Shown: positions 1,334-6,185 of the stretch, piece after piece
Position numbering within the stretch: the first letter of the stretch is position 1
Layout: each line of letters begins with the position of its first letter
NCBI GenBank assembly: GCA_000004695.1
Contig: CM000153.2
Coordinates: 3,296,001 to 3,360,000 of the forward strand
Direction of reading: 5' to 3'
DNA length: 64,000 nt
Origin: Dictyostelium discoideum
Lineage: Eukaryota
Notes under the pieces: generated by a model
What the model saw: the letters and a program-made list of their open reading frames with translations, nothing else
The model's database searches: none
Told to the model about the DNA's origin: nothing
Translations under genes and position numbers: made by a program

Positions 1334-4300
1334 ATGATACAAAGTGTATATTCAAATATAATCATTCTAATATTAACAATAATAATAATAATAAATTTTA
1401 ATAACGTAAACTCACAAATAATTGATATTTATTTCAGTAATAGTTATGATAATTTAAATGGTAATGGCACCATATCAAACCCATATCAAAATTTATGTTT
1501 ACTAAATCAAATTTTAAATTCAAATAATAATATAAATAATAATATAAATAATAATATAAATAATTCAATATTAATAATAAATATTGATTATGGTGATTAC
1601 AATTTAAATTGTTCATCATTTTTTACAATAATTAACTTTAATAATATTTCATTCATACCTTATAAATCAAATAATAATAATAATAATGAGATTGTAAATT
1701 TAAATAGTACAAATTATTTAAGAATAGATAACTCTAATGTTAGATTCGATGGGTCAATAACAATAATAATGAACACATTTGAAATAATATTTAGTAATAG
1801 TGAAATATCATTCAATAATGGGGCTGTATTTTATCTTGAAGCTTTTCTTTTCTTTCAAATTCAATGTTCAAACATTATATTTTCAAATTCAACATTCACT
1901 TCAAAATCATCCCATATTGGATCTAATGATATAAATTCAGATTCTAGTATACTCGAATTTCGAAATTCTTTAGTAGAAAATATATCTTTAATTTTAAATT
2001 ATCATACAGATAGGAGTAGTAGTAGTAGTAGTAGTAGTAGTAGTAGTAGTAGTAGTAGTGGTAGTGGTAATAATAGTTGTAGTAATGAAAATAATATTAG
2101 TTTATCAATTTATAATAGTAATATAAAATCAAGTACTTTTGAATTTTATAAATATAGTTATATAATTGATAATTCATTATTGGATGGTGTATCGATTGAA
2201 GTTAGAGATGGTGCAATATTTAATATAACCAATTCAAATGTATATGTAGAGTATCCAACTTATTCATCAATTTTTGAAATTTATAATAATAATAAAATGA
2301 AAGCTTCAACATTAAATATTGTAAATAGTGCTATTTACTATATGAATAGTTTTGATTTTTCTTTAATAACTATTACTAAAAACTCAATTGTAACAATTAG
2401 TGATTGTAATATAAGTGGGAGATTCAATAGAGTTTATAGATTAGTTGATATTATAGGTGATCCTAGCATGACTAGTGAAACCATATTAATTGTAGAGAAT
2501 TCAAAGATTTTAAATTTCATTTCAGATAGTGATATGATTAATTCATATCATTCAACAATTGTATTCAAGAATGTTCAATTCTATTCAAACACTTTTTCAT
2601 CAATATTTTTATTAAGTTTTAGTGGTAATCTACACATTCAAGATATTAGTATAACATGTGACCAATTGAATTCTTTCTCAATGATAGTAGATTCCCCACT
2701 CGTTTTAGATGCAAATCATACGTTTATCTCAAATATAAGTATGAATAATGTTTTTATGAGTTGTGTAGGTGGATTTAAATTTCTAATTTCTAAAATTGAA
2801 ATTTCAAATTTTAGACTAGAATCATTTTCAAAACCTTCAACTATAAGTTTATACTACCAAAGTGATTGTACAATTGTAAATGGTACTTTTATATCTAGTG
2901 TATTCAAACAAGAGTCAAGTATGTTTTATTTGGAATCAAGTGAATTGAAGGCTATAGATTGTCAATTTAAAGATAGTACTACCAATATTCTAATGGCAAG
3001 AGATTCCAATACAATGTTTCAATCTTCAAATTTTTCAAATTTAATACCATATAGTTCTTTTGATTCATACTCAATTTTTTATTCTATAAAGGGTTCAATG
3101 CTATTTATTGGATGCAATTTTAACCAAATTCAAACAACATCTTCATTGATTTCAACAACATTTTCAGATTATCTAATGTTAAAGAATTCAAGATTTGAAA
3201 GAGTTGGTAATGCTATTCTTTCGAGTAAACTTACAAATAATGTCACAATCGATGGATCATTAATAGTGAATTGTAATACACAATCTATATTATTTGTTTT
3301 TAGTTATAATGAAAAGTGTTTAATTAGAAATTCTAGCTTTTTAAATAATCATGGTATTGGTTATACACTTATTGATATAAACAATTCAATGATGGAAATT
3401 AGTTTAGTGGAGATTTCAGACAACTCTTTCTCTTCAATCATCGAGGAATACTATTCAAATATCACAATGATCTCAATTAGTGCCTATAGGAATTATGGAG
3501 TTTTTTATCGAGGTTATTCATCAAACACTTCCTTTTCAATCGATGGTTTGCTTTTCAAGGATAACTACTATGTGAGCTCTGTATTTGATTTGTTTGAACA
3601 TTCCAATGCAACCTTTTCAAACATTTACATTCAAGATAACTATTTCACAAATATCTTTTTTAGTTCATACGATAGTTTTATCCATTTTAGTAATGTCACC
3701 TTCAAACAGAATGTATTGATTTATCCATCTCCACAAAGTAATATATCAATTTCTGCTGGTGGTTTCCTTTTTAATAGTAGTTTTATTAATTTTGAAAATT
3801 TAATCATTATCAATAATGAAATCTCAACCAAATTAATTGATCTTTACCAAACAAATCTATCAATTTCAAATGGTTTATTTGAGAATAATCAATTCTCAAC
3901 TTATTTAATTTTTTCAAAAAAAAATTCCACTGTTAATCTCTTGAATACAAAGATATTAAAAAATCAAGGTGGTGATAGTTCAACTATTTTTATGTTTTAT
4001 GCTTCAAATGTAATTGTGAATTATTGTGAATTCTCTTTTAATAATATTTATCAAGTTGGTAGTAGTTCATTAATTAATTTTAGTAGATATTTTGAAATTG
4101 GTCAAACTATCAATAAATTTGCTTATTTTCAAATTGAAAATACTTTATTCTCCTTCAATATAGCTAAACTTGGTCAATTATACTTTTCAGGTTATCAAAG
4201 TGATCAAGATGCATTTACAAATAGTAAAAGTACATTTTCAAATAATTCATTAATTTCAAATCATGCATCTTCACAAGGTGGTGCTATCTACACTGAAAAT

Positions 4301-6185
4301 TTCATTTTCTCTTTAAATATTTCAAATATTTTAAATTCAAATCATTTCGATAATAATACTTCATTATGTGGTGATAATTTCTCTTCAAGTATGTATTTAT
4401 TATTATTATTATTATTATTATTATTATTATTATTATTATTATTATTATTATTATTATTATTATTATTATTATTATTATTATTATTATTATTATTATTATT
4501 ATTTTTATTATTATTGTTTTATTTTTATAAATAATCCTAATTTTTTTTTTTTTTTTTTTTTTTTTTTATTAGGTTTAAAAGAAATTATTTTCATTGAAAC
4601 TAATGATACATTTTTAGTAAATGGAGTTGGATCTATTATCAATTATAATGCAGTGGATTTTTATAATAATGCATTAACAACATTATCTTCACCAATTCAA
4701 ATTAATATTACACGTTTATCAGTTAATGTACTACAAACCTTCACTGGTGCAATTTTAAGTGGTAAAGGAAGTTTTTTACATACTTTTATAGGACCACTTT
4801 ATGAAAGATTTAAAATTGAATTGTATCTCAAACCATATTATTCAAATGTTTATTTAACACTTGGTAAATGTTTACCATTTCAATATATGAATAATTTAAC
4901 ATGTGAATATTGTCCAATAGGTTCATCATATAGTAATTCAATAGGTCAATGTTTAAAATGTAATCCTAATGCAGTGACATGTGTTGGTTCATTTGTAAAT
5001 GTAAATACTGGATATTATATGATTGATAATGAAATCTCAATTGTTGAACGATGTGCAAACGATATGTGTCTTTCAAATAATCAATGTCAATTTAAATATA
5101 GTTCAGGAGATTTATGTTTCAGTTGTTTAGATCCAGACTCATCAACACCAACATTCATAGCAGCTAAACATGGAATTAATTGTTGTTCCCAATTTAAAGT
5201 ATGGTTAATTGTACCATTATTATTATTATATTTAGTTTCAGCATTAGTTCTCTCAATAATCAAATTAAATTTATTCACAACAATAATTGGACCAATAATA
5301 GTATTCCTTCAAATTAATTCAGTGGTTTTCTTTTCTTATAATGGTATTTACATTTTAGCATTCTTTAGAGTATCATTAGATATTTTAGATGGAATTTGTA
5401 TTTTCAAAGGATTAAATCATGGAAATAAAACATTAATTACACTATCAATTATAATAATAATGTTTTTAATTTCTTCAAGTGATTGGTTCCCTTTATGGTT
5501 ATTTAGAAAATTAAATTCAAATTTTAAGTTACACAATTATTTAAAAAGAAATTTAAAAAAGAAAAGAAATTTAAAGAAATCATCAACAACTCAGTTTAAT
5601 TACTTTATTAGATCAAGATGGCAATTATTTCAAATCTTTATTATACCATTAATATTCAATTCATTTACATTGATAATACCAAAGAAAATTAAAGATCAAA
5701 CATTATTATTAGTAGATTTTTCAATTTTATTTGGATCATGGCAGAGTATTCTTCAAATTTTCATTTCAGTTTTAATAATAATATTTGTAATAGTCATTTT
5801 AGTGTTAAATCATTTTATTTTCAAAAAGGGTAAATTAAAGTTGTGGGAATTGATTATTATTGCAAAATCATTTTTATTTTCAATTCTATCAATATCATTG
5901 ATTTTTAATGATTTTTATACACCTTCAATTATTTTAATTCAAATTGTTTATTCAACTATTTACTTTTTATTAAATCCAAAAAAGAAAGGAAATTCAAAGA
6001 AATCATCGAAAATTGATAATAATAATTTTATAAATTTAATTCAACTATTAATCTTTCTTACTGTAAATTCAAAATTATTCCAACAAATTGCTCCTAATGT
6101 CTTTGGGTTAATTTTAACCATTTTAATTATTATCTCAACCTTTTTGATTGCAGTAAAAAAAAATAAAACATTTAGCTTTAATTAA
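1334..6185 (+). CDS. Large N-glycosylated secreted/membrane protein with Chlamydia-PMP-like (GGAI/FxxN) repeats, beta-helix-like N/S-rich ectodomain, Cys-rich stalk and C-terminal multi-pass TM region. Model join(1334..4388,4573..6185), about 1,556 aa.
   Basis: ORF-track entries 1334..4534 and 4368..6185 are in different frames. A GTATGT donor at 4389 and a TAG acceptor ending at 4572 join them in phase. The intron contains the (TTA)n run that the ORF caller read through as poly-L/poly-Y. The N-terminal hydrophobic stretch (MIQSVYSNIIILILTIIIIINF) looks like a signal peptide. There are dozens of NxS/T sequons. The motif SQGGAIYTENFIFSLN matches the PMP repeat consensus. A Cys-rich block CEYCPIGS...CLKCNPNAVTC is followed by at least 6 hydrophobic helices. 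Confidence 0.6.
4389..4572 (+). repeat. Intron carrying a (TTA)~35 trinucleotide microsatellite
   Basis: Uninterrupted ttattattatta... from about 4396 to 4503, flanked by a GTATGT donor and a poly-T/AG acceptor. Confidence 0.7.

Follow-up and report, generated by a model that had tools for sequence, protein, structure and literature searches.

A giant beta-helix ectodomain on a predicted nine-helix membrane module in Dictyostelium discoideum: a putative adhesion or recognition receptor from a protist-wide family

The stretch of DNA analysed here, hereafter the window, comprises 64,000 nucleotides of the Dictyostelium discoideum AX4 genome (assembly GCA_000004695.1, contig CM000153.2, positions 3,296,001 to 3,360,000), and our subject is the gene at its positions 1334 to 6185. 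The locus is probably DDB_G0285483, judging from the gene order around DDB_G0285491 and DDB_G0285497, whose exact proteins the window holds. Profile comparisons place the product of this gene in a branch, expanded in dictyostelids, of a protist-wide family that combines the last rungs of a polymorphic membrane protein (PMP) type helix with an immunoglobulin-like (Ig-like) domain, a Cys-rich stalk and nine transmembrane (TM) helices. With moderate confidence, we read the whole as a multi-pass membrane glycoprotein whose N-terminus lies outside the cell or in a lumen, with a beta-helix that would bind and a stalk and nine-helix module that would transduce. As to its kind, the protein would be an adhesion or recognition receptor.

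A preliminary description, written from the letters of this DNA, had proposed one spliced gene with its junction at 4388/4573, and this two-exon model (1334-4388 plus 4573-6185) is correct. The open reading frames (ORFs) 1334-4534 and 4368-6185 are connected by a canonical intron, and the spliced coding sequence of 4,668 nt keeps its frame to one terminal stop, giving a product of 1,555 aa. The intron consists almost entirely of a (TTA)35 microsatellite and a poly-T tract. Annotated homologs carry the junction peptide CGDNFSSS/LKEIIFIETND unchanged, both in D. citrinum, where overall identity is 78%, and in D. discoideum, where it is 63% and 60%. In another D. discoideum assembly, the annotated proteins of three tandem paralogs can be reproduced only with exactly one intron in each gene, which lies at this same position. 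Furthermore, an independent gene call in GCA_054883475.1 has a product of 1,555 residues that ends at window position 6185, and over its 3' 3.2 kb it differs from the window by one gap of 5 nt and by no mismatch.

That the locus instead holds two genes, or a pseudogene, is scarcely credible. Such a view could point to the unspliced reading of exon 1, in which the (TTA)n repeat runs on as poly-Leu to a stop at 4534 and gives an ORF of 1,066 aa, and to an exact look-up in a collection of 15 billion proteins, from which the 1,555-aa sequence was absent. However, the GT..AG intron is canonical, its GC content is 3%, and the frame, the junction peptide, the shared intron position and the independent call with its identical stop all fit a single gene. 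The same architecture is contiguous in Acytostelium, Tieghemostelium and ciliates, and exon 2 by itself offers neither a start codon nor a signal peptide; the first Met in it is residue 1124. Both exons are also under purifying selection, with a ratio of nonsynonymous to synonymous divergence (dN/dS) of 0.24-0.27 between orthologs, which points to a functional gene. The intron itself varies in length: it has 184 nt in the window and is 5 nt shorter in GCA_054883475.1, which is of the same strain type, while in the divergent isolate GCA_054859355.1 it has 110 nt in the ortholog and 86 and 77 nt in two paralogs.

We reached the relatives of this protein by an exhaustive HMMER scan and by a profile of less biased homologs. 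In a word-indexed protein search, the full protein gave three matches and the C-terminal half none, and known paralogs were missed, the sequence being of low complexity. The exhaustive scan, for which the query was the C-terminal 546 aa, returned 23 proteins out of 1.84 billion representatives. Ten of these were looked up, and all belong to Dictyostelium species, Tieghemostelium lacteum or Acytostelium subglobosum, under no more than names such as 'hypothetical', 'transmembrane protein' or 'right handed beta helix domain-containing'. Within D. discoideum assemblies, the family occupies at least six loci, namely a tandem trio, DDB_G0272102 (Q55A59), and genes of the P0006, P0007 and P0035 types. 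Beyond the dictyostelids, the family profile found the same order of parts in Blepharisma, in Euplotes/Moneuplotes and in the proteins labelled P0045, P0047, P0054, P0055, P0064, P0065, P0072 and P0075.

HMMER alone gave no link between the dictyostelid and the protist C-terminal modules. With hhalign, the whole C-terminal module aligned to that of ciliates and other protists over 500 columns with a probability of 99.85% (E 1.6e-30). The TM part on its own aligned to the protist relatives at 97.3% (E 2.2e-11), and the Ig-like domain and stalk on their own at 98.8%. These relatives include an unnamed protist family (for example Blepharisma stoltei P0043; Euplotes/Moneuplotes crassus P0049 and P0050; P0055, P0065 and P0075) with the same domain order and a homologous C-terminal module. 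By eye, the alignments show motifs common to both sides: [FY]-x-Q in TM2, D-x(4)-C in the loop between TM4 and TM5, Y-[WY]-W-[DE]...R before TM6, and a P after TM7. Another relative, P0064 (2,805 aa, from an AT-rich eukaryote), has added MAM and fibronectin type II domains, a sub-threshold EF-hand match, and a cytoplasmic insert of approximately 400 residues between TM1 and the other helices.

For the tail, the preliminary description had counted at least six and possibly seven TM helices, with a GPCR-like (G-protein-coupled receptor) fold in mind. The multi-pass tail stands, but the predicted number of helices is nine, oriented with the N-terminus out and the C-terminus in. An AlphaFold2 (AF2) model of residues 1006-1555, made with 14 sequences, has a mean predicted local distance difference test score (pLDDT) of 79.5 and a predicted template modelling score (pTM) of 0.69, and it consists of a beta-sandwich, disulfide hairpins and nine long helices. 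The family-averaged hydropathy agrees with nine helices, and the loops carry 17 Lys and Arg residues inside vs 8 outside, which fits this orientation. Nine residues of the membrane domain are invariant: Q1265, F1283, R1284, C1294, K1304, W1368, F1380, N1381 and D1400 (positions from the A1 alignment, with numbering shifted by +1005). Of these, the polar or charged Q1265, R1284, K1304, N1381 and D1400 lie in or next to the helices.

We can compare this tail directly with that of a receptor. The family profile retrieved a protist protein, P0074 (eukprot 310696_1), that joins PF02415 PMP repeats and PF00003, a class-C 7tm_3 domain, and its ectodomain aligns to that of the window protein with a probability of 93%. 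In addition, the Dictyostelium proteins GrlP, GrlQ and GrlR have been reported as family-3 GPCRs that bear a region with homology to Chlamydia PMP (PMC1885808), so that an adhesion-GPCR-type sensor of this kind might have been expected here. Nevertheless, a seven-helix receptor is very improbable. Besides the nine helices seen by AF2 and hydropathy, neither the window protein nor any of the 14 family members matches a 7tm Pfam family at E<=1, and when the TM profile was compared by hhalign with the 7tm_3 domain of P0074, the probability was 0.4%. The gene is not among the Grl genes, and those named in PMC1885808 lie on chromosome 5; as for the tail, the names of family members say only 'hypothetical' or 'transmembrane protein'. 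Nor was a GPCR fold found in the tail. Since the ectodomain of P0074 aligns and its anchor does not, related PMP-type ectodomains sit on two unrelated multi-pass anchors in eukaryotes.

Between the helix and the membrane domain lie two further parts. The first is the Ig-like domain, which the preliminary description had not mentioned. The second is the Cys-rich stalk, which it had recognised: 13 Cys at residues 1118-1223 are invariant in 14 family members, and in the AF2 model residues 1118-1225 form a run of small disulfide-rich hairpins. With dN/dS values of 0.04-0.09 between paralogs, the stalk is the most constrained part of the protein. Relatives gave sub-threshold Pfam matches to DUF7630, Ephrin_rec_like and TNFR_ELAPOR1.

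At the other end, the signal peptide proposed earlier was borne out. Residues 2-25 are hydrophobic, with a Kyte-Doolittle peak of 2.4, and are followed by the site VNS/Q, whose small residues V and S at -3 and -1 agree with the cleavage rule; the motif NNVNSQ-I-x-IY is kept among homologs. The Asn/Ser-rich character of the region of about 1,000 aa was likewise confirmed, the ectodomain containing 14.7% Ser and 12.4% Asn. On the other hand, the more than 60 N-glycosylation sequons counted earlier could not be recovered. The protein has 37 N-x-S/T sequons, 35 of them in the ectodomain, and shuffled sequences of the same composition have 35.4±4.9. We thus rejected an enrichment of N-glycosylation sites, because the shuffled sequences reach the same number and the count is an effect of composition.

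The right-handed beta-helix that had been suggested for the ectodomain is supported by several lines of evidence. Pfam PF13229 (Beta_helix) matches residues 534-675 with 27.9 bits, above the cut-off of 25.9, and is the only Pfam match of the protein above threshold; the relatives P0019 and P0047 reach 50.5 and 101.6 bits. An AF2 model of residues 28-1118 with 15 homologs (pLDDT 82.6, pTM 0.68) is all-beta, with 101 short strands across the first 960 residues. The autocorrelation of the hydrophobic pattern peaks at 24, 48 and 72 residues, consistent with about 34 rungs. A beta-helix typically rises by ~4.8 Å per rung, so that ~34 rungs of ~24 aa would add up to a rod of about 16 nm. A Foldseek search of the PDB returned almost only right-handed parallel beta-helix proteins, the few exceptions matching the Ig-like domain in the model. 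Finally, the family profile retrieves dozens of bacterial and archaeal proteins with PF02415 and/or PF13229 at E 5e-33 to 1e-4, and for this reason we assign the helix, at the profile level, to the PMP/beta-helix superfamily.

The PMP signature itself is another matter. A GGAIY...FxxN repeat had been read from the sequence, and its link to PMP proteins survives at the profile level only. GG[AVC][ILVF] occurs once, in a column kept as GGAIY or GGVIY across the family consensus, and FxxN occurs 16 times, compared with 13.6±3.3 expected by chance. Pfam Chlam_PMP (PF02415) has no match in the window protein at E<=1, and dictyostelid relatives score only 14.7-17.4 bits on it, below the cut-off of 20.6. 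By contrast, P0055, P0065 and P0075, which have the same C-terminal module, score 114-155 bits. The protist members hence carry strong canonical PMP repeats and the dictyostelid branch degenerate ones, suggesting that the diagnostic PMP tetrapeptides have decayed in the latter.

The Foldseek matches include PL6 alginate lyases, phage tailspikes, polygalacturonases, chondroitinase B and alginate epimerases, and it could be asked whether the helix is a membrane-tethered polysaccharide lyase or hydrolase, acting for instance on bacterial capsules or extracellular matrix, instead of a binding rod. The closest folds, among them the tailspike depolymerases, would suit such an enzyme. However, these matches are weak (best E 6.8e-5, identity 8-13%) and hence show a fold class, not a function. 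In the helix, the only columns invariant across the family are Gly and Asn, with nearly invariant Ser and Asn, at typical structural positions of rungs; no acidic or basic catalytic set is kept, and constraint is weaker in the helix than anywhere else in the protein. Because no residues of a catalytic type are conserved, an enzymatic role appears unlikely, and we give it little weight.

The helix and the module beneath it also differ in how they evolve. The divergent isolate GCA_054859355.1 carries the tandem paralogs at L002:4911-22354, three genes with products of 1,563, 1,589 and 1,588 aa, and the third (L002:17478-22354) corresponds by position to the window gene as its ortholog. In AX4, the other two should adjoin position 1 of the window on its upstream side. 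Between the orthologs, identity by tblastn with gaps counted is 90.7% for the ectodomain and 95.7% for exon 2, and in a gap-free codon alignment it is 94.7% and 95.9%; over the whole gene, synonymous divergence (dS) is ~0.08 and dN/dS 0.24-0.27. This dS is high within a species and suggests that the isolate is of a divergent lineage or that the region evolves fast. Between paralogs, dS in the beta-helix is 0.45-0.74 with a dN/dS of 0.6-0.75, and helix identity is only ~50%, whereas the 3' part from the last PMP rungs onwards has been kept similar. From residue ~941 to the C-terminus, dS is 0.08-0.23, and within this part the Cys stalk has the dN/dS of 0.04-0.09 given above. This three- to eight-fold drop in synonymous divergence from residue ~941 indicates that the 3' 'constant' half is probably homogenised by gene conversion while the helices diverge.

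Taken together, the variable helix would be the ligand- or surface-binding part, with glycans, prey or substrate surfaces and other cells as candidate partners, and the stalk and nine helices would form a unit of transducing, channel-like or transporter-like character, through which events at the ectodomain would act on the membrane or cytoplasm. In Pmp proteins, the GGA/FxxN repeats are the rungs from which the beta-helix of an adhesin is built (PMC10715098, PMC11166332), and a binding helix would accord with what PMP and other beta-helix adhesins do elsewhere. The C-terminal module is likely to be more than an anchor, because it is deeply conserved and under purifying selection, contains invariant polar and charged residues, and has nine helices where one would suffice.

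Several observations weigh against this picture and explain why our confidence in it is no more than moderate. A binding role of the helix is deduced solely from its fold and its family. Searches of the PDB by sequence and by profile gave no usable match, and no relative of known function was detected for the nine-helix domain; a match to TRPM4 was rejected as chance, since it had an E-value of 1.3-2.4 and covered one hydrophobic stretch of 40 residues. No Pfam family matched the nine-helix domain in the protein, in 14 members or in consensus sequences, and the fold-search lists contained no membrane-protein match, the query being a multi-domain model whose Ig domain dominated them. Where sequences are repetitive, AF2 is known to predict beta-solenoids too readily (bioRxiv 10.1101/2024.10.30.621056); the Pfam and profile matches support the beta-helix fold independently of AF2. 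Diversifying selection on the helix is not supported: dN/dS is below 1 in all comparisons, and relaxed constraint would look identical. A literature search by gene ID (the inferred IDs around the gene, the AX4 paralog DDB_G0272102/Q55A59 and two orthologs) found no mention. The architecture had earlier been called unusual, and in these respects, a TM domain without a Pfam family and no mention of the searched IDs, it is, but the family is conserved across Dictyostelia and has relatives in ciliates.

Location is a further point on the opposing side, as the helix could project into an endolysosomal lumen instead of standing at the cell surface. The protein would then reside in an endolysosomal, phagosomal or vacuolar membrane, and its luminal helix would serve as a protective or glycan-binding lining or in trafficking. 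We consider this possible, though on balance unlikely. An N-terminus that is luminal or extracellular fits either location. The Arabidopsis protein PELEUS (AT5G11700) may be related to the window protein in architecture, and such relatedness, if it exists, would favour an endomembrane location. PELEUS has 1,453 aa, a signal peptide, multiple TM helices and no known domains, and it is found at the tonoplast and late endosomes, where it affects vesicle trafficking (bioRxiv 10.1101/2024.12.03.626687). Apart from the PELEUS paper, searches of the literature on PMP repeats in ciliates and on DUF7630/7631 found nothing relevant.

How the favoured receptor would transduce can be made more specific if its nine-helix module is a very divergent member of the fungal and protist transient receptor potential (TRP)-like Flc/Pkd2 group (PF06011), in which case the family might be adhesin-coupled, possibly stretch- or contact-gated, Ca2+-permeable channels. 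S. pombe Pkd2 consists of a signal peptide, an extracellular Ig-like domain, nine TM helices and a cytoplasmic tail (bioRxiv 10.1101/2022.08.11.503631) and has been reported to be permeable to Ca2+ on membrane stretch (bioRxiv 10.1101/2022.08.11.503631; PMC9727806). The window protein has the same order, an Ig-like domain and then nine helices with the N-terminus out, a striking resemblance, albeit one of architecture and no proof of homology. Moreover, P0064, whose module is homologous, matches PF06011 in its C-terminal TM region (E 1e-5, 25.0 bits, model positions 273-405). That score, however, is below the Pfam cut-off of 28.5 bits and is the sole match: none was found in the window protein, the other scanned relatives, the 14 dictyostelid members or four family consensus sequences, and hydrophobic bias can yield scores of this size. 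Therefore, we regard membership in this group as doubtful.

More doubtful still is the fuller proposal that the Ig-like domain, the Cys stalk and the nine helices together form a deeply divergent relative of Flc/Pkd2, and that the family comprises 'adhesin-gated' or force-gated cation channels. Under it, the ~16-nm rod would act by way of the disulfide-locked stalk on a pore made of the nine helices, either by pulling or by allosteric gating. If this were true, the protein would be a unicellular counterpart of the polycystin-1/2 idea, and the tandem trio, with its divergent helices and gene-converted constant half, would constitute a small set of sensors for contact with prey, substrate or other cells.

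The coordinates of the gene, the parts of its product and the neighbouring genes are collected in the table.

Table. Features of the gene, of its product and of the surrounding window
Feature	Residues	Window positions	Strand	Basis or remark
Exon 1	codons 1-1018 and first base of codon 1019	1334..4388	+	ORF from ATG at 1334; donor GTATGT from 4389
Intron (sole)		4389..4572	+	GT..AG, 184 nt, 3% GC, acceptor TAG ending 4572
Exon 2	rest of codon 1019 to stop	4573..6185	+	stop codon 6183-6185
Signal peptide (MIQSVYSNIIILILTIIIIINFNNVNS/Q), predicted	1-27	1334..1414	+	hydrophobic core, -3/-1 rule
Right-handed parallel beta-helix, degenerate PMP-type rungs	~28-987	1415..4294	+	Pfam, AF2, Foldseek, profile matches, autocorrelation
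GGAIY motif, only one, in last helix rungs	982-986	4277..4291	+	regex count
Ig-like / macroglobulin-type beta-sandwich	1020-1117	4575..4868	+	AF2 model
Cys-rich stalk	1118-1225	4869..5192	+	13 invariant Cys, including CC pair directly before TM1
Nine-helix membrane domain, predicted	1226-1555	5193..6182	+	AF2, family hydropathy, positive-inside rule
TM1	1228-1251			AF2
TM2	1257-1270			AF2
TM3	1301-1332			AF2
TM4	1356-1383			AF2
Extracellular beta-hairpin of membrane domain	1388-1397
TM5	1408-1437			AF2
TM6	1442-1460			AF2
TM7	1467-1485			AF2
TM8	1501-1517			AF2
TM9	1526-1554			AF2
Two paralogous MMR_HSR1-type GTPase genes		6460-8202 and 9672-11876	-	directly downstream
Small Trm112p gene		~12405-12952	+	called in other assembly
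TARBP1/SpoU-type methyltransferase		18745-23892	+	1,715-aa ORF; housekeeping neighbour
2OG-Fe(II) oxygenase		24640-25638	-	housekeeping neighbour
Myo-inositol-1-phosphate synthase		28434-29909	-	housekeeping neighbour

The GTPase genes adjoin the PMP and nine-helix genes in the other isolate too, and with 82-89% nucleotide identity between isolates they are more divergent than the target gene. The window has a GC content of ~22%, and the upstream intergenic region (1-1333) has 16% GC, as measured in the first 2-kb window, with long poly-A and poly-T tracts. The minus-strand ORFs at 1029-1241 and 1093-1284 are low-complexity artefacts.

Among known systems, the chlamydial Pmp proteins (PF02415) resemble the window protein in the ectodomain: they have an adhesin beta-helical passenger of GGA(I/L/V)/FxxN rungs (PMC10715098, PMC11166332), and our family profile finds many PF02415 proteins. 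However, a Pmp is a bacterial type V autotransporter with a C-terminal beta-barrel, whereas the window protein is eukaryotic, with an alpha-helical nine-TM tail and one GGAI motif; no autotransporter Pfam match was found in it. GrlP, GrlQ and GrlR come from the same organism and also combine a long PMP-like ectodomain with a multi-pass anchor (PMC1885808), and P0074, discussed above, is a protein of their type. Nevertheless, their 7tm_3 anchor is unrelated to the nine helices, and their loci are different. Dictyostelium SadA, a nine-TM substrate-adhesion receptor whose loss impairs adhesion and phagocytosis, resembles the window protein in having a signal peptide, extracellular Cys-rich repeats and nine predicted TM helices with the N-terminus out (PMC2173991). 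It differs in its length of 952 aa, its three EGF-like repeats and its lack of a beta-helix, the comparison being one of architecture only (PMC2173991). S. pombe Pkd2 and fungal Flc share the signal peptide, the Ig-like domain and the nine TM helices with the window protein, but Pkd2 has neither beta-helix nor Cys stalk. Polycystin-1 also sets a very large adhesive ectodomain on a multi-pass, channel-related domain, with 11 TM helices and different ectodomain modules. As searches of the window protein gave no PKD1-type Pfam or PDB match, polycystin-1 is a functional analogy only.

To our knowledge, Dictyostelium has no integrins, and its receptors for adhesion to substrate and prey are only partly known. 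For this reason, an expanded family of giant beta-helix receptors offers concrete candidates for adhesion receptors, which are genetically testable in Dictyostelium. If the nine-helix module proves channel-like, it would represent a novel link between an adhesin and ion flux; if it does not, a family of 'hypothetical' genes still gains a corrected annotation, with nine TM helices and not a GPCR. Overall, the known kinds to which the protein can be compared are the eukaryotic PMP/beta-helix surface proteins and the multi-pass adhesion receptors of Dictyostelium (SadA and GrlP/Q/R). What sets it apart is that the same type of ectodomain stands on a different, conserved nine-helix module, one without a Pfam family, a solved relative or, in the literature searched, a published function, and common to dictyostelids and ciliates.

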